Below, one piece after another: positions 3-8,628 of a stretch of 8,628 nt of DNA. Source of the stretch: Candidatus Heimdallarchaeota archaeon (GTDB lineage: Archaea; Asgardarchaeota; Heimdallarchaeia; JABLTI01); assembly GCA_030614005.1 (NCBI GenBank), contig JAUWKS010000097.1, positions 1 through 8,628 on the forward strand, written 5' to 3'. The translations under genes and the position numbers were made by a program. The notes beneath the pieces are model-generated. The model saw only the letters and a list, made by a program, of their open reading frames with translations. It was not told where the DNA came from and searched no databases. The stretch's first letter is position 1; each line of letters begins with the position of its first letter.

Positions 3-1535
3 ACAGGTAAAGATTTTATTTACTCTGATAATTTCACTGAACCTTTACAGGACTATTTAGAAAAAACAGGTCAGATAGACAGCGAAGGAAATAAGCTAAC
101 TACTAATACAGAATCAAGTGGTAGATATCATTCTGATTGGTTAAATTTTATGTATCCAAGATTATTTTTCGCTAGACATTTTTTGTCTGATGATGGGGTA
201 ATCTATGTTTCAATAGGCAATCAAGAAATCCATCATCTTCGAATTATCATGGATGAAATCTTTGGTGAAGAGAACTTCATTGCTCAATTAATTTGGGAAA
301 ATAAAGAAGGCGGTGGAAGCTCTGATAGTAAACATTTCAAAGTCAAGCACGAGTATATTTTAGCTTATGCAAAGAGCAAGCCACTTTTAACTATTAGTGG
401 GATTTCAATTGACGATGAAGATAGGTACACTCAAGAAGACGAGTTTGTTGAAAAAAGAGGTAAATATCAATTGATTAAATTAAATAGTGCAAGCATACAA
501 TACTCTCAATCCTTAGACTATGTAATCAAATCTCCAGATAATACAGATATTGTTCCCAGCTATGGAAAGAAACGTGCTTGTTGGCGTTGGTCTAAAAACA
601 AGTTTGAGTGGGGTATTAAAAATAAATTTATTGTCATCAAACGAGATAGACGTGGGGAATGGGCAGTTTATTCTAAACAATATTTGAAAGTTGATAATGA
701 AAATAAACCTTATGATAGAAAGAAAAGACCACCTGGTGTGATTTCAGATTATTCAAGTACAATGGCAACAAAGCATCTCGAAGATTTATTTGGTGGACTG
801 AAAGTATTTGATTATTCTAAACCATACCAGCTTATAAAACATTTAATAACAGTATCCACTGGTAAAAATGATTTAATTCTTGACTTTTTTGCTGGTAGTG
901 GAACAACTGCTGAAGCTGTTTTTGAAAATAATAAAGAAGATGGAGGAAATAGACGTTTTATACTTATCAATCTAGAAGAAGAAACATTGGATGAGAATAT
1001 TAAAAAAATTTATCCATTTGTTACAGATATTTGTGCGGAAAGATTGAGACGAATTTTTCAAAAAATTAATTCTGGAGAACAGAAATTACTCTTTCAATTG
1101 GATACAGGTTTCAGAGTATTCAAGCTCTCTCAGTCTAATCTAAATTTGAAGGGAGAATTTCAATTTGATGAAAGTGAAGACTCAAAGATACTAAAGAAGA
1201 AATACTTAGAGAGTCTAGGGCTGTGGTTAGAGGAACCACTTATTGGGGATTGGAAAGGCTTGGATGTAATCTATGAGTTAATACTAAAGAATGGTTTTGA
1301 TTTGCATTCAACAATTACTGAACTAGAAATAAAGGGTTCAAAATTCTTCAATATCACTGATACAAAATACGGTTCTGATTTCTATGTAACACTAGAAAGC
1401 TCAATTTCTAAAGAAGCAATCGAAGAAATAAGATCTGAAACATTTAGAAACAAGCTATTTATTTTTCTGGACAAAGCACTTACTGATAGCGATAAGATCA
1501 ATTTAGGTGCCTTTGTAAAACTGAAGGTGATTTAA
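3..1535 (+). CDS. mod: Type III restriction-modification methyltransferase (Mod subunit, beta-class amino-MTase), 5'-truncated by the window edge
   Basis: The frame of the 150..1535 ORF has no stop back to base 3 and reads TGKDFIYSDNF...SGRYHSDWLNFMYPRL, the segment that follows DPPYN (motif IV) in Type III Mod proteins; DPPY itself would lie just off-window. The SAM-binding motif I DFFAGSGTT is at 882..908. It has the Mod-type C-terminal tail (DTGFRVFKL...) and sits 1 bp upstream of res. ATG 150 is an internal Met. Confidence 0.95.
   Translation, partial: TGKDFIYSDNFTEPLQDYLEKTGQIDSEGNKLTTNTESSGRYHSDWLNFMYPRLFFARHFLSDDGVIYVSIGNQEIHHLRIIMDEIFGEENFIAQLIWENKEGGGSSDSKHFKVKHEYILAYAKSKPLLTISGISIDDEDRYTQEDEFVEKRGKYQLIKLNSASIQYSQSLDYVIKSPDNTDIVPSYGKKRACWRWSKNKFEWGIKNKFIVIKRDRRGEWAVYSKQYLKVDNENKPYDRKKRPPGVISDYSSTMATKHLEDLFGGLKVFDYSKPYQLIKHLITVSTGKNDLILDFFAGSGTTAEAVFENNKEDGGNRRFILINLEEETLDENIKKIYPFVTDICAERLRRIFQKINSGEQKLLFQLDTGFRVFKLSQSNLNLKGEFQFDESEDSKILKKKYLESLGLWLEEPLIGDWKGLDVIYELILKNGFDLHSTITELEIKGSKFFNITDTKYGSDFYVTLESSISKEAIEEIRSETFRNKLFIFLDKALTDSDKINLGAFVKLKVI
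378..779 (+). other. Approximate target recognition domain (TRD) of Mod
   Basis: Segment between the conserved KHEYILAYAK block and the FDYSKPYQLIKHLI/motif I block, which is where beta-class Mod proteins carry the variable TRD; contains the basic/aromatic CWRWSKNKF. Boundaries are approximate. Confidence 0.65.
1525..1531 (+). promoter_or_regulatory. Shine-Dalgarno-like ribosome binding site for res, embedded in the last codons of mod
   Basis: AGGTGAT is complementary to the conserved 16S 3' tail (AUCACCU) and ends 5 nt before ATG 1537. The junction reads AAG GTG ATT TAA A ATG. Confidence 0.6.
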
Positions 1536-4146: not shown

Positions 4147-4148
4147 AG

Positions 4149-4154
4149 TTTTTT
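4149..4154 (+). terminator. Possible oligo-T terminator immediately after the res stop codon
   Basis: A run of six T begins 2 nt after TAG 4146 with no preceding hairpin. Such runs also arise by chance at this AT content. Confidence 0.3.
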
Positions 4155-4157
4155 CTT

Positions 4158-4189
4158 AGGTCAGGGGTTTAAATCCCCATACGCTACCA
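4158..4189 (+). pseudogene. Degenerate tRNA 3'-half remnant, candidate att site of a tRNA-targeting integrative element
   Basis: AGGTC (variable-loop-like) AGGGG TTTAAAT CCCCA (T-arm-like; the loop differs from TTCAAAT at one base) TACGCT A CCA. The stretch from T-loop to CCA is 1 nt shorter than canonical, and no D-arm or anticodon arm lies upstream. Confidence 0.7.
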
Positions 4190-4199
4190 TAAATACTAC

Positions 4200-4206
4200 T
4201 TTTTTT
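4200..4206 (+). terminator. T7 run downstream of the tRNA-like fragment; possible terminator of the original tRNA gene
   Basis: Seven consecutive T start 11 nt after the CCA at 4187..4189. Confidence 0.35.
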
Positions 4207-4226
4207 ATATAAACAGGGTTGAACAA

Positions 4227-7200
4227 TTATTCTTTCCAATGAAAAACAATGGGTTCATTTAAAATAGTTGTAATTTTGGACTTGTTACAAAAATGGTGAG
4301 TGTATTTCCTTATTTTCTCTGTATATTCCATTATTTGATGTCTTCTTGGTAAATAATCCAAGTAGTTTTCACTGCAAACTAGAACTGCTTTTGATTTTGC
4401 TCTAGACGTTAAAACATTAAACCTATTTAAATCATAAATAAATTCCTCTTCTGCTTTCAGTTGATCTTTATCAGATATTCCCATAGAAGCAATAATGATT
4501 CGTCTATCTGACCCTTGAAATTTTTCGACCGAAACGATAGCTCTTTTTAATGATCGCATCAATTCATCTTCAGTTAATTTATTTCGACTATCTTTTATTA
4601 AAAACTCAAAAATTTTGTTTATAATCATACGTCCTTGAGCGTTATGTGGTGCAACAATTCCAATCTCCTCTTCCCAGAAATCCTTCTGTTCTTCCTTTGT
4701 ACTTGGGTTACCCATTGAAAAATAACCAATTAATAATTCACTAGCTATTTTTGCTTCTAATTCACTTATAGTCGAATCTAGGTTATTTTTATGAACAATG
4801 CTACAAATAATTTTATCAGGATCAAGTACTTCCTTTACCCACTCATCTTTTATATTTTCTAAATTCCCTTCGATTTTACTATTTGCATTAGTGTGATGTG
4901 TTTTTAGGTTTCTATAAAAACCTAGACTTGCAGTATAATCCACTATTGCTTGATTTGAGCGATAATTGTTTTCTAGCTGTGTAGCATTCAATTGGTGACC
5001 ATTGAAATAATAATTGAACAAGCTTCCTAAAACAATTTCCAACTTTTTTGGTGGTTTGATTATCTTTACAGGTGGTAATTGATTATGATCACCTACAATA
5101 ACCACTTTTGTTAGGCAACTATAATCAATATCTTCATTAGGTGTCATTTCTGAAGCTATCTTTACAGGATCATCTCGAGATTTACCAATTAGAACCCCTG
5201 ATTTATCAATAAATGATATTGATTGATCTTTTACATATTGTAAACAAGACATGAAATAATCGATTGGAAACTGAGATGCTTCATCTATTATTATAAGATC
5301 AAACTCACTGAAATCTACTTCAAACTCATTTCCTTCAGCGTAATTATTTAATTCAGATAACTTGTACAATTGATGAGCATTACCAAAAAGAATGAAACTT
5401 TCATTTATTATTGATTGAGAGGAACGCTTCATTCGTTTGTAAGATTGTTCATTTATTTTCCAGCTGTTATTGTCTTTGTATAAGTTAAGTATGTTGTTAT
5501 TTGCTGTAATAAGCTCACTTGGTTCATATGATGATGAATGTAAGAATATCTTTTGTATAGATGCAGCTAGAGTTGGTTTTTCCTTAGTATTAGTGCTGTT
5601 CTGTAATTTCTCCAAAACAACATTCAATGCAGTATATGAGAAAGCTGAAATTAATATTTTTACAGGTCGATTACTATTTCTAATGAGAAATTCATCTATT
5701 AGAGAAACTATAGTCTCCGTTTTACCTGTCCCTGGCGGACCAATAATCATTGATATTGTATTTTCTAATGATGTTTTTATAGCTAATTCTTGTGAAAGAT
5801 CAGGTTTATTTTTAACATTGGTTAATAATTCTGGTGGTTCTAGTGTTTTTGTCTTTTGTAATATTTTAGGCATATAGAGATAGAGCTCTGGAGTTCTAAA
5901 AATAGATTCCATAGGATAATCTAACTCGTTACCCATACTCAAACTCCAATAATAAGTTAGTCTTTGAGCTAGCCAAGAAGTTCCGAAATTATTTCTTGTG
6001 AGTAATCCAGTATTATTTCTCATATTCCAAAGTTTGTTTGGCCAACTATCACTTGCATTAGGATAAAGATACCATGTCTCAGATAGAAAACCAAGCTTTT
6101 CTTGAGCTTGTTGAATTAGATTTCCGTAGTCTTCATTAGTTTTTATTTCATAGTACGAAGTTTCATTATTCTGTTTCTTTTTCCAATTCATTTCTTCAAT
6201 AATAACTTTCCAATCTCGAGGGAAAATTCTATCTCTCAGCTCAAAAGGAACAAGTAAAACATGATCTCCCTCTTTTAACTTAACATTGGTAGATAAATTA
6301 TGCAACTCAAATTCATATGAATATTTACTACTTCTTCCTGTTGGGATTTCATTGTTTGTTAAATTTATCACAGCAGCAGATTGCAACTTTGCAATACTGA
6401 AAAGTGGAAACATCGTTCGATAAAATTCTGCTTCATACTCACTTATTGCTCCATTTAATCTTGAATAAACATACCAAAAATTACTTATCAAATGAAAATC
6501 ATTTTCAAATCTTCTTCTCAACATTGAAGTTGAATCCGCAGGAATTATATTTCTTGAGACTAAAGTACCTGCTCTTAATTGGAAGTAGTTTCTTAATTTA
6601 TCTAATGTTCGTAATTTGTGTCTAATTTGTCTACTAATTTCATGTGCTTTTCTCTGTTTTGATGCTATTTCTTCTTCTACAAGAAAATCATCCCAAACTC
6701 CGAAATCCATATAATTGATATGTGGTAGCCAGAACATCCTATTGCTTTTAGAATTTAACAGTTCTTTTGCTGATTCATGCCAAGTATAATTGACAACAGT
6801 GTTAGGTAAACCAACAATTGTTTCAGCAAAAACACATAAATCATAGAGTTTCTTATGCTGAAAAGGATCTTTAACATCAGATTCGGAAGATGAGATAAAA
6901 GCTGACAGTTCAAGAAGCAATGGTTTAATCTGATTATCCATCAACACCAATTGAAGATTTCTTTCAATTAGCTCTTCAAGAAATGTTAATTGATTAGCAG
7001 ACCAATAGAAAATGGCTAGATTTGGTTTTTGTATTCGATTTCTCTCATCTGGTTCACTGCTAATGTAATTCTCCATGATATTACAAAAGGAGACTAGTAA
7101 GTGAAGAGTTTTCAATATTTGCTTTGTTAGATTAGCTTCATCAATATCTGTTACTCCTTGGTTCAAGAAGTTACACCAATATTCAACTGTTGTAAAATTA

Positions 7201-8627
7201 TTAGTTTGATCAGCTAACATTAAATTAGCAATTGAGTTACCGTTTTTAGTCCATAATTTATCAATAATCATTCCAAAAGTACGAATGTCATTTTCATCAA
7301 TTTCAAAATTGAAATAACTATCTAAGCGCACTTTTATTTCATCTAATGAGATAGAATTCTCAAGATAATCAAACCAAACTTGCCACCAATAATCAAATTT
7401 ACTCTTATAACAACCAAACCTCTTTGGTCTAACAGTCAGATTTAGGTACATTCCCATCGCAAAAATTCTTTCTCTTAGAGGATCATATTCACTATCAATT
7501 ATTAATACAAAATCGGAATACTTTGGTATCGCTAAAGAATAAACGTCATTTTGTTCAGGATAAAATGCTTTGTTATTTATTATAGCTTCTAATTTCACTT
7601 TTATTAAAGGCAGATGAGGATAAATTGGATTTGGAGTTTTCCCAATATCATATTGCTTTAATGCCTTCTGAGCATCACTCATAGTTTTCACACCCATATT
7701 TCTTAATTGCTCAGCAACTGCTTTTGATAAGTTTGGTAATAATCGAATATCCCAATCTTTAGCAGGTAAATCAAAAAAACCGAAATTCCTTTTAAAATCA
7801 TCAATATATTTACATCTACTACATCCTCGAGAGAAATTATAGTCTGGGATGTCTGGAGAAATATTAATTGGTACCTGCTCAAAAAGAGAATTAATATAAT
7901 TGAATACTTCCTTAAATACTCGATAACAACAATCCCAGATTAAAGTTATAGTTTGAGATTTGAAATTTTCAATACTTTCAAATATCAAAGGAGTAACAGT
8001 TGGTAAGATACCATTTTCATCTGCCTTAACAAAAAACTTGTCGTTTAAATTATGTTCATGTAGGTAATTACTTAATACAATACCATAAAAAACAATTTCA
8101 ATGAAATGCTTATTATTTACCATTAACTGGTTACTTGCTTTAATATCAAAAACATTTATTCCTATTCGATTAAACTCATCAGCAGTTTCAATTACTTTCT
8201 TAGTTCCATCAGGCATGATTTCATAAATTTTGCTTTCATCTTCTTGGATTATTTCTTTTTCAAAAACTATAATATCAGGTCTACAAATCGTTGTATAGAA
8301 TAATTTGCGTTGGTGTTCATCTAGAAAGTTTTCTAAAAACTTAGAAGGAATTTCTAATTCACATTCTAGTAAACAAAGTTGTTTTGATTTCGAGCTTGTA
8401 AGTTCTGTATGAATGGAATCAAAGCTTTCCTTTGTTAGTATTGTCTTAGATATTTTATTGTTCTCAGTAGTAGATGCTTTAGTATCACCCATTTGTAATA
8501 ATGCTTGATATACAAGTTGTTCGTAATCTTTGCCTATCTTAAGTGAAGGTTCTACGCTTCTAACAAAATACTCTTTTCTTTTGACTTGGTAAGTATAACC
8601 GAGAAAAGCGTTATCTTCTTCAGATAA
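4227..8627 (-). CDS. Large nuclease-helicase fusion (RecB/Cas4-like PD-(D/E)xK nuclease + HhH + diverged RNase H-like domain + Upf1/Dna2-like SF1B helicase), at least 1466 aa, 5'-truncated
   Basis: The frame stays open for 45 codons beyond ATG 8492 (LSEEDNAFLGYTYQVKRKEYFVRSVEPSLKIGKDYEQLVYQALLQ-MGDTK). Nuclease motifs GKDYE, RPD, DIK, EIVFY and CSRC; HhH-like segment; DSE motif; helicase motifs GPPGTGKT, DEASQ, GDHNQLPP, NYRS, SVEKFQG and NRFNVLTSRAK. The layout resembles TM0106/COG2251-type nucleases fused to AAA_11/AAA_12 helicase domains. Confidence 0.85.
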   Translation of the reverse strand, partial: LSEEDNAFLGYTYQVKRKEYFVRSVEPSLKIGKDYEQLVYQALLQMGDTKASTTENNKISKTILTKESFDSIHTELTSSKSKQLCLLECELEIPSKFLENFLDEHQRKLFYTTICRPDIIVFEKEIIQEDESKIYEIMPDGTKKVIETADEFNRIGINVFDIKASNQLMVNNKHFIEIVFYGIVLSNYLHEHNLNDKFFVKADENGILPTVTPLIFESIENFKSQTITLIWDCCYRVFKEVFNYINSLFEQVPINISPDIPDYNFSRGCSRCKYIDDFKRNFGFFDLPAKDWDIRLLPNLSKAVAEQLRNMGVKTMSDAQKALKQYDIGKTPNPIYPHLPLIKVKLEAIINNKAFYPEQNDVYSLAIPKYSDFVLIIDSEYDPLRERIFAMGMYLNLTVRPKRFGCYKSKFDYWWQVWFDYLENSISLDEIKVRLDSYFNFEIDENDIRTFGMIIDKLWTKNGNSIANLMLADQTNNFTTVEYWCNFLNQGVTDIDEANLTKQILKTLHLLVSFCNIMENYISSEPDERNRIQKPNLAIFYWSANQLTFLEELIERNLQLVLMDNQIKPLLLELSAFISSSESDVKDPFQHKKLYDLCVFAETIVGLPNTVVNYTWHESAKELLNSKSNRMFWLPHINYMDFGVWDDFLVEEEIASKQRKAHEISRQIRHKLRTLDKLRNYFQLRAGTLVSRNIIPADSTSMLRRRFENDFHLISNFWYVYSRLNGAISEYEAEFYRTMFPLFSIAKLQSAAVINLTNNEIPTGRSSKYSYEFELHNLSTNVKLKEGDHVLLVPFELRDRIFPRDWKVIIEEMNWKKKQNNETSYYEIKTNEDYGNLIQQAQEKLGFLSETWYLYPNASDSWPNKLWNMRNNTGLLTRNNFGTSWLAQRLTYYWSLSMGNELDYPMESIFRTPELYLYMPKILQKTKTLEPPELLTNVKNKPDLSQELAIKTSLENTISMIIGPPGTGKTETIVSLIDEFLIRNSNRPVKILISAFSYTALNVVLEKLQNSTNTKEKPTLAASIQKIFLHSSSYEPSELITANNNILNLYKDNNSWKINEQSYKRMKRSSQSIINESFILFGNAHQLYKLSELNNYAEGNEFEVDFSEFDLIIIDEASQFPIDYFMSCLQYVKDQSISFIDKSGVLIGKSRDDPVKIASEMTPNEDIDYSCLTKVVIVGDHNQLPPVKIIKPPKKLEIVLGSLFNYYFNGHQLNATQLENNYRSNQAIVDYTASLGFYRNLKTHHTNANSKIEGNLENIKDEWVKEVLDPDKIICSIVHKNNLDSTISELEAKIASELLIGYFSMGNPSTKEEQKDFWEEEIGIVAPHNAQGRMIINKIFEFLIKDSRNKLTEDELMRSLKRAIVSVEKFQGSDRRIIIASMGISDKDQLKAEEEFIYDLNRFNVLTSRAKSKAVLVCSENYLDYLPRRHQIMEYTEKIRKYTHHFCNKSKITTILNEPIVFHWKE
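4338..5810 (-). other. SF1B (Upf1/Dna2-like) helicase core
   Basis: Q motif DLSQELAI, Walker A GPPGTGKT (5718..5741), Ia SAFSYTALN, II DEASQ (5271..5285), III GDHNQ (5079..5093), LENNYRS, IGIVAPHNAQ, SVEKFQG and VI NRFNVLTSRAK, all in canonical order with the catalytic residues present. Confidence 0.92.
6585..7511 (-). other. Diverged DEDD/RNase H-like (RNase_H_2-like) domain
   Basis: LIIDSEYDP (D-x-E at 7488..7496) followed by IFAMG; then AIFYWSANQ, LYDL and GLP...NYTW blocks in the order expected for this fold. The later acidic catalytic positions are not evident. Confidence 0.55.
7668..7751 (-). other. Helix-hairpin-helix-like DNA-binding segment
   Basis: DIRLLPNLSKAVAEQLRNMGVKTMSDAQ follows the pattern l..lp.i....a..L...Gi.t..d seen after the nuclease domain in TM0106-like proteins. 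Confidence 0.6.
7788..8627 (-). other. RecB/Cas4-like PD-(D/E)xK nuclease domain of the large ORF (N-terminus off-window)
   Basis: Motif I-like GKDYE (8520..8534), motif II PD (8274..8279) followed by a hydrophobic strand, motif III D-I-K (8139..8147), E-I-V-F-Y at the RecB-family QxxxY position, and C-S-R-C (7812..7823). Confidence 0.75.
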
Positions 8628-8628
8628 A

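Follow-up and report, generated by a model that had tools for sequence, protein, structure and literature searches.

What does a cell of an Asgard archaeon do with a protein that joins a Cas4-like nuclease to a Upf1-like helicase? This question is raised by a stretch of DNA of 8628 bp from a Candidatus Heimdallarchaeota archaeon, here called the window, which is the entire contig C52 of a metagenome-assembled genome of 3.6 Mb (126 contigs, estimated completeness 90%). The minus strand of the window carries a long open frame for a predicted helicase-nuclease, which we describe below together with its relatives. Judged from structural models and from the genomic company of the relatives, we lean, with a little more conviction than doubt, towards a stand-alone helicase-nuclease that processes DNA ends.

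Domain architecture of the helicase-nuclease

The features of the gene are given below, with amino acid (aa) positions counted along the open frame.

4227..8627, minus strand: helicase-nuclease open frame, 1466 codons plus the stop codon TAA at 4227-4229, open up to the contig end
7773..8627, minus strand: Cas4/RecB-type PD-(D/E)xK nuclease domain, aa 1-285, from structure matches and residue conservation
8520-8522, 8274-8276, 8145-8147, 8139-8141 and 8085-8087, minus strand: codons of the nuclease residues E36, D118, D161, K163 and Y181, respectively
7812-7823, minus strand: cysteines C269 and C272 of the putative iron-sulfur cluster, invariant in 60 members
7794..7796, minus strand: codon 278, TTT (Phe), at the position of the fourth iron-sulfur cysteine, Cys in 59 of 60 members
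7638..7760, minus strand: helix-hairpin-helix (HhH)-like segment, aa 290-330 (about 294-324 in the model), from two short helices and column conservation
6708..7535, minus strand: RNase H-fold DEDD/PolB-exonuclease-like (YprB-type) domain, aa 365-640, from structure matches and conservation
5808..6707, minus strand: linker helices, helical stalk and beta-barrel (1B-like), aa 641-940, from alignments to IGHMBP2, Upf1 and Dna2
4230..5807, minus strand: SF1B (Upf1-like) motor domains 1A and 2A, aa 941-1466, from AAA_11, AAA_12, structure and motifs
5718-5741, minus strand: Walker A motif, with K969 at 5721-5723

An exhaustive profile search yielded 360 relatives, including about 70 full-length ones. 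The family is therefore not as rare as a word-indexed homologue search, which returned only 6-7 relatives, had suggested. On IMG/VR viral contigs, relatives of the N-terminal module were not found. AlphaFold2 models were built with alignments of 60-62 family members and reached a pLDDT (predicted local distance difference test) of 89.3 for residues 1-640 and of 88.0 for residues 600-1466. Residue conservation was counted over 60 family members, and over 62 sequences in the case of the helicase motifs. The models confirm the four-module architecture that an earlier note had proposed from the letters of the window, consisting of a PD-(D/E)xK nuclease, an HhH, an RNase H-like domain and an SF1B helicase, the HhH being the least firmly supported of the four. 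Since the window protein deviates at only 2 of the 132 positions that are at least 93% conserved in the family, it is not a decaying copy.

Residues 1-255 of the model resemble Cas4 most closely (7mi4, Z 9.6, 143 aligned residues, root-mean-square deviation 3.9; 8d3l, Z 8.2; both by VIA-align). They also match MGME1 (Z 7.5), RecE (Z 6.5), the nuclease of Dna2 (5ean, Z 6.4), the Cas4 protein SSO0001 (Z 6.3), AddAB (3u44, Z 6.1), Exo5 and AdnAB, all of which are RecB-type PD-(D/E)xK DNA nucleases. The nuclease motifs RPD118, D161-I-K163 and E177-x3-Y181, the last at the position of the QxxxY-type helix, are all present in the window protein. D118, D161, K163 and Y181 as well as C269 and C272 are invariant in all 60 members, E36 is kept in 58 and E177 in 59 of them, so that the PD...DxK residues are indeed intact as first proposed. 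The family shares the cysteine pattern C...C-x2-C-x5-C with the iron-staple nucleases Cas4, AddB and Dna2, the positions being kept in 56-60 of the 60 members, and presumably binds an iron-sulfur cluster. In the window copy the first of these cysteines, which 56 of 60 homologues possess, falls outside the contig.

These N-terminal folds were resolved by structure comparison. Pfam, NCBIfam and PADLOC matched the helicase part of the window protein and left the N-terminal approximately 940 residues without a match. When the N-terminal 640 aa of 60 members were run against Pfam, no meaningful match was obtained, and the N-terminal profile retrieved no PDB sequence even at E 10. With the N-terminal model, Foldseek found nothing in the PDB at E 0.001 or better (Cas4 was listed at E 0.011, probability 0.97), which was insufficient to resolve the folds, and VIA-align was needed for this step. 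The N-terminal 650 aa then proved to match nuclease and exonuclease-type folds instead of unrelated ones. Among the Swiss-Prot models of AlphaFold DB no significant match was obtained; UvrC, Arabidopsis JHS1 and a Mycoplasma MG366 homologue appeared only at E >1e-3.

The C-terminal part is recognized by the Pfam models AAA_11 and AAA_12 and by an IGHMBP2-type NCBIfam model, and its PDB sequence matches include Upf1 (43.9 bits), DNA2 (41.8 bits) and IGHMBP2. Over residues 100-860 of the C-terminal model, structural alignments were obtained with IGHMBP2 (Z 25.7, 552 aligned residues), Upf1 (Z 23.3) and Dna2 (Z 21.3). They start at about residue 700 of the protein, run to its end and take in the stalk and the barrel. 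The top Foldseek match of this model was Dna2 (E 1.8e-25). Thus, the parallel to Dna2 that had been drawn for a Upf1-like helicase is borne out by the structures, among which Dna2 ranks with the best matches. The helicase motifs from Q to VI, which had been described as complete, were all found (PDLSQ 942 as motif Q, GPPGTGKT 963, DEASQ 1115, GDHNQLPP 1179, NYRS 1221, QGSD 1371 and TSRAK 1407) and are invariant or nearly so in the 62 sequences. A 5' to 3' polarity of the helicase would be expected from its family membership.

Between nuclease and helicase two further modules are predicted. The HhH-like segment follows the family pattern L-[IL]-P-x-[TL]-S-x-[SA]-x-A-x-Q-L-x3-G-x2-T. Its two short helices in the model agree with the HhH proposed earlier, whereas Pfam matches stayed below threshold both in the window protein (TfoX_C, E 0.024; Cdd1, E 0.067) and in its relatives (DNA_pol_lambd_f, IMS_HHH_1 and RAD51D_N). 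For aa 370-640, matches were found to the exonuclease domains of PolB polymerases, namely Pol alpha (Z 6.7), RB69 gp43 (Z 6.1), Pol epsilon (Z 5.8-5.9) and Pol II, and to the DEDD exonucleases ERI2 (Z 5.8), ExoI (Z 5.5), TREX1 (Z 5.5) and 3'hExo. The Z values are modest, but the matches are many and concordant, and they assign the domain to the DEDD branch of the RNase H fold rather than to RNase H1 or H2.

The acidic positions of this domain are conserved to different degrees in the family: E380 in 56, D382 in 54, D or E at position 545 in 51 and D596 in 49 of the 60 members, while the canonical first Asp position, 378, is conserved in only 18. With the residues assigned to the DEDD motifs by sequence position only, the set of four conserved acidic residues is not complete in the window protein, which has Asn at the motif II position 545 (codon 6993-6995); an independent public contig agrees. 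Because one of the four candidate acidic residues is replaced, the exonuclease-like domain of the window copy may only bind DNA.

An RNase H-type fold in the middle and a motor whose closest structures include the RNA helicases IGHMBP2, Upf1 and Sen1 could also be read as an RNA or R-loop enzyme, in which a Upf1-like RNA helicase and an RNase H-like domain remove RNA:DNA hybrids or RNA. We regard such a role as unlikely. The middle domain matches polymerase proofreading and DEDD exonucleases and not RNase H1 or H2, the N-terminal nuclease belongs to a family of DNA nucleases (Cas4, Dna2, AddB, MGME1), and the operon partners described below, Mre11 and Rad50, are DNA-break proteins. Hence, the RNase H-like module of the earlier note was correct with regard to the fold, but the RNA:DNA substrates suggested with it are without specific support, the domain being of the PolB/DEDD exonuclease type.

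Extent of the gene

The 5'-end of the helicase-nuclease gene is cut at the contig end. The homologues comprise 1433-1513 aa and begin about 24 residues further upstream than the window frame, from which we estimate that about 24 codons are missing. In the homologues this stretch reads M-x-K-I-x-K...E-C-E-R-Q-L and contains a conserved cysteine. A start at ATG 8492 had been assumed before; the 45 residues upstream of this codon, however, align with all homologues and contain the nearly invariant E36 and the invariant Y40, and ATG 8492 is therefore internal. Because of the truncation the earlier residue numbering has to be corrected as well, and D73, K118 and K924 become D118, K163 and K969 of the open frame.

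A contig from a public cold-seep metagenome (run X2) matches the window up to position 8540 and continues with 255 letters of different sequence in place of window positions 8540-8628. Translated on the minus strand in the frame of the gene, the first 30 divergent letters give R-I-P-R-T-L-E-Y-L-Q. As this fits the family pattern R-x2-R-[ST]-x5-x-I-G-K, the extension probably represents the N-terminus as found in another strain.

Association with Mre11-Rad50

For the analysis of genomic context 40 loci were collected and their neighbours were clustered. The most regular arrangement was found in three taxonomic families of another class (f19-f21), which are of the Lokiarchaeial/Promethearchaeota type to judge from the names of homologues. 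We sampled 21 primary copies from them, and in at least 18 of these, genes for an Mre11/SbcD-type and a Rad50-type protein follow the helicase-nuclease gene on the same strand. The genes are directly adjacent or, at two loci, separated by one or two intervening genes; for two of the three other copies the contig ends too early to show the arrangement. The partners are a Metallophos protein of about 500 aa and an AAA_23/SMC_N protein of about 900 aa. In four single-contig genomes of these lineages, the Rad50 of the operon is the only full-length Rad50 match, and NurA is encoded elsewhere.

Since the gene heads an Mre11-Rad50 operon in these lineages, its product probably carries out long-range resection after Mre11-Rad50 there, in the manner of Dna2, AddAB or RecBCD. 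As Mre11-Rad50 is also the best-conserved genomic partner of the family as a whole, double-strand end processing is its most likely function. The closest relative of the window protein (1491 aa, 64% identity) is encoded one gene away from a NurA-HerA-Mre11-Rad50 cluster.

A mechanism can be proposed from the predicted modules. By analogy with Dna2, RecD2 and Upf1, the SF1B motor would move 5' to 3' along single-stranded DNA at the expense of ATP and would feed the translocated strand into the N-terminal Cas4/Dna2-type nuclease, the fold of which would be pinned by an iron-sulfur cluster bound to four cysteines. The HhH segment and the PolB-exonuclease-like domain may hold or trim the other strand. 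A broken DNA end would thereby be resected or destroyed.

Two side observations concern genomes with an Mre11-Rad50-linked copy. At four loci of one genus-level group (L111, L114, L117 and L122) the operon is longer and consists of the family gene, an Mre11-like gene, a Rad50-like gene, a second Rad50-like gene (about 840-860 aa) and a gene for a conserved 130-175-aa protein that had no Pfam match. Moreover, a second, longer paralogue of 1583-1605 aa (L128, L129 and L130) occurs in some of the genomes that possess such a linked copy. These paralogues form a clade of their own and are not located next to Mre11-Rad50.

Several points weigh against DNA-end processing as the role of the family and of the window copy in particular. 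The distribution is patchy: the N-terminal profile detected the family in 52 of 399 genomes of the phylum, with 10 of 12 and 9 of 14 genomes in some taxonomic families and none of 30 and none of 22 in others, and in only 2 of 10 other genomes of the genus to which the window belongs. Full-length members also occur in at least two Deltaproteobacteria-type metagenome-assembled genomes. NurA was found in 372 of the 399 genomes, holders of the family included. A replacement of HerA-NurA by the family was considered and rejected on these counts; as NurA is nearly universal, the family adds to HerA-NurA rather than replacing it. In the class of the window itself, none of about 12 loci was linked to Mre11-Rad50, and the window copy adjoins a Type III restriction-modification system instead.

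Two further points of this kind come from sequence comparison. In a very close genome of the same genus (G081), the Dna2-like protein is 91% identical to that of the window's genome, but the family copies share only 45% identity and lie in different contexts. This suits an exchanged accessory gene, as which the family gene behaves in this genus, better than a gene of core repair; by this comparison the genus-level copies are xenologous and the copy in the window is an accessory version that has undergone horizontal exchange. In addition, the window protein is the sole one of 60 members with Phe at the position of the fourth cysteine. The only public cold-seep metagenome contig covering position 7795 (that of run X2, depth 2.4) has C on the plus strand where the window has A, resulting in TGT and thus Cys. 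Phe278 therefore probably stems from an error of assembly or from a minor allele.

The window copy and its restriction neighbours

The remainder of the window is occupied by two genes that converge with the helicase-nuclease gene.

3..1535, plus strand: Type III methyltransferase Mod, N6_N4_Mtase, 5'-end cut by the contig start
1537..4146, plus strand: Type III restriction endonuclease Res, 869 aa, ResIII helicase and C-terminal RE_endonuc domain

Mod is directly followed by Res, and an 80-bp spacer (4147-4226) separates the pair from the helicase-nuclease gene. This neighbourhood raises the possibility of a dedicated defence protein that degrades foreign DNA, for instance DNA cut by the adjoining Type III enzyme, much as RecBCD completes the destruction of phage DNA after restriction. 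The Res gene beside it looks complete, the Mod gene is present as well, and all three share a short contig. A second locus of this kind is found in a Proteobacteria metagenome-assembled genome (L017:9-14389), in which BrxC (E 0), PglZ (E 1e-183) and BrxHI (E 8e-245) are followed, 14 bp downstream and in the same orientation, by a full-length member that looks like the closing gene of a BREX operon. The patchy distribution and the contrast between copies of 45% and Dna2-like proteins of 91% identity in two very close genomes would likewise suit a defence gene. Its helicase part was matched by the PADLOC models of MkoA, DpdJ and PDC-S37, and a likeness to the motor of PLuB was also noted.

Against a dedicated defence role stands the fact that defence genes adjoin the family gene at these two loci only. 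The surroundings of 15 Asgard copies unlinked to Mre11-Rad50 comprise 89 neighbours, of which most are metabolic genes and few match defence models. The resemblance to MkoA, DpdJ and PLuB is confined to the motor: no PADLOC model covers the N-terminal 940 aa, and no PADLOC defence protein was matched over its full length. Above all, the best-conserved context of the family is the Mre11-Rad50 operon. We therefore consider a dedicated defence protein to be a serious but rather doubtful alternative to an enzyme of DNA-end processing. The window copy may serve in back-up repair or in the destruction of foreign DNA beside the restriction system; RecBCD illustrates that repair and degradation of foreign DNA need not exclude each other.

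In the genome of the window, tblastn with Mre11, Rad50 and NurA from related loci gave no matches. Searches with local hidden Markov models (HMMs) revealed an Mre11-like frame on contig C26 and Rad50/SMC-like frames elsewhere, none of them near C52.

Relation to Dna2 and other known systems

The window family and Dna2 (mouse DNA2, structures 5ean, 5eaw and 5eax) share the order of PD-(D/E)xK nuclease, stalk, beta-barrel and SF1B motor as well as the cysteine pattern C...C-x2-C-x5-C. Both are tied to Mre11-Rad50-dependent end processing, in the case of the window family via the operons of other lineages of the phylum. This raises the question whether the window protein is the archaeal Dna2 orthologue and acts in the removal of Okazaki-fragment flaps and in fork processing. 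The combination of a putative iron-sulfur nuclease with an SF1B helicase that has a stalk and a barrel would agree with this assignment, and in a published tree eukaryotic Dna2 is related to some Asgard homologues (2025 study, PMC12680538).

The same genome, however, encodes a better candidate. A frame of 1172 aa on contig C76 (G000:C76:3930-7448, L108) combines a Cas4-like cysteine-bearing N-terminus with a helicase, and its top PDB match is mouse DNA2 with 95 bits, whereas the window helicase reaches the 41.8 bits mentioned above and is tied with Upf1. The C76 type was present in 4 of 4 same-genus genomes tested, with 72-91% identity, in contrast to the 2 of 10 holders of the window family. 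Moreover, the window family has about 350 residues, comprising the HhH and the DEDD-like domain, inserted between nuclease and helicase, and its helicase is no nearer to Dna2 than to Upf1 or IGHMBP2. The family is also patchy and not universal. The Pfam Dna2 model (PF08696) had no match anywhere in the genome. From these comparisons the window protein does not appear to be a Dna2 orthologue, with the C76 frame as the better candidate, and a function in flap removal and fork processing on that basis is very improbable. In two same-genus genomes (G084 and G089) the frame matching the C76 type is interrupted by an in-frame TGA or TAA.

A further relationship connects the N-terminal module to the TM0106 group. 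Residues 20-640 align to AlphaFold DB entries annotated as PD-(D/E)XK, YprB RNase H-like and TM0106 with E values from 1.2e-18 to 1e-5. The corresponding model TIGR03491 gave weak matches in 12 of the 60 family members (best E 2.3e-7) and none in the window protein at E up to 1, the curated cut-off not being reached. Thus, the link to this group drawn in the earlier note holds at the level of fold and architecture, with the window protein outside the TIGR03491 HMM. In both, a Cas4-like nuclease and a YprB/PolB-exonuclease-like domain form, in this order, a two-domain module, to which the window family, unlike the TM0106 family, adds a complete Upf1-like C-terminal helicase. No TM0106 member with a tested function was found in the literature.

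In our tree, the sister group consists of bacterial proteins of about 1370-1460 aa that are named by NCBI 'bifunctional RecB family nuclease/DEAD/DEAH box helicase' (e.g. from Hyphococcus luteus and Kaustia mangrovi). They are of similar length and share the nuclease and HhH region (profile positions 1-420, E of about 1e-30), but match well over only these first 420 profile positions. A published study of them was not found. A genome of the window's genus (G084) contains a 1443-aa member of this otherwise bacterial group (L131, contig C103), which suggests transfer between the domains.

AddAB, RecBCD and HerA-NurA likewise combine a motor with one or more nucleases, and their processing of ends together with or downstream of Mre11-Rad50/SbcCD is known or has been proposed. 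The window protein differs from all three in being a single polypeptide and in having an SF1B motor instead of an SF1A motor or a HerA hexamer. Family members carry the NCBI name 'AAA domain-containing protein', and no publication on the family or on the TM0106 group was found. Searches of PDB sequences, Swiss-Prot models and literature did not place the protein in a characterized family of the same architecture, in line with the earlier statement that no function was known for the full arrangement.

An entry of AlphaFold DB, Q54P97 (1679 aa, 'DNA2/NAM7 helicase-like C-terminal domain-containing protein'), aligns with its residues 315-860 to the N-terminal module at E 5.5e-12. To judge from its accession range it may stem from Dictyostelium, which would make it a eukaryotic protein with the same architecture.

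Implications for end resection in archaea

In eukaryotes, DNA ends are resected by Mre11-Rad50 and then by Dna2 or Exo1, whereas archaea are thought to use Mre11-Rad50 with HerA-NurA. The family described here may represent an undescribed long-range end-resection enzyme of Asgard archaea, with two nuclease-type domains and a Dna2/Upf1-type motor, that in other lineages shares a transcript with the sole Mre11-Rad50 of the cell and of which accessory copies have been re-used beside restriction systems against foreign DNA. In this comprehensive form we put the proposal forward as tentative, a possibility rather than an expectation. If it is true, a resection axis of Mre11-Rad50 and a Dna2-like enzyme existed in archaeal relatives of eukaryotes. 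The family, which resembles Dna2 in its outer modules and heads the Mre11-Rad50 operon in some Asgard lineages, provides a tangible candidate, amenable to purification, for a different resection machinery in archaea and bears on the origin of the eukaryotic pathway.

Newly seen in this study are the copies of the window's (Heimdall-type) class that are unlinked to Mre11-Rad50, the xenologous copies at genus level, the bacterial copy at the end of BREX genes and the separate Dna2 candidate of the genome. As copies are located at the end of a BREX operon and beside a Type III system, the family may show how repair enzymes are borrowed for defence. The window copy itself contributes less, being truncated by the assembly and standing alone.

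With regard to the host, many tRNA genes of the metagenome-assembled genome are intron-bearing, genes of the actin family are present, and homologues of the large protein bear NCBI names such as Heimdallarchaeota and Promethearchaeota archaeon; these three observations place the genome in the Heimdall group of the Asgard archaea. In rRNA searches no 16S rRNA of either domain was found in it.

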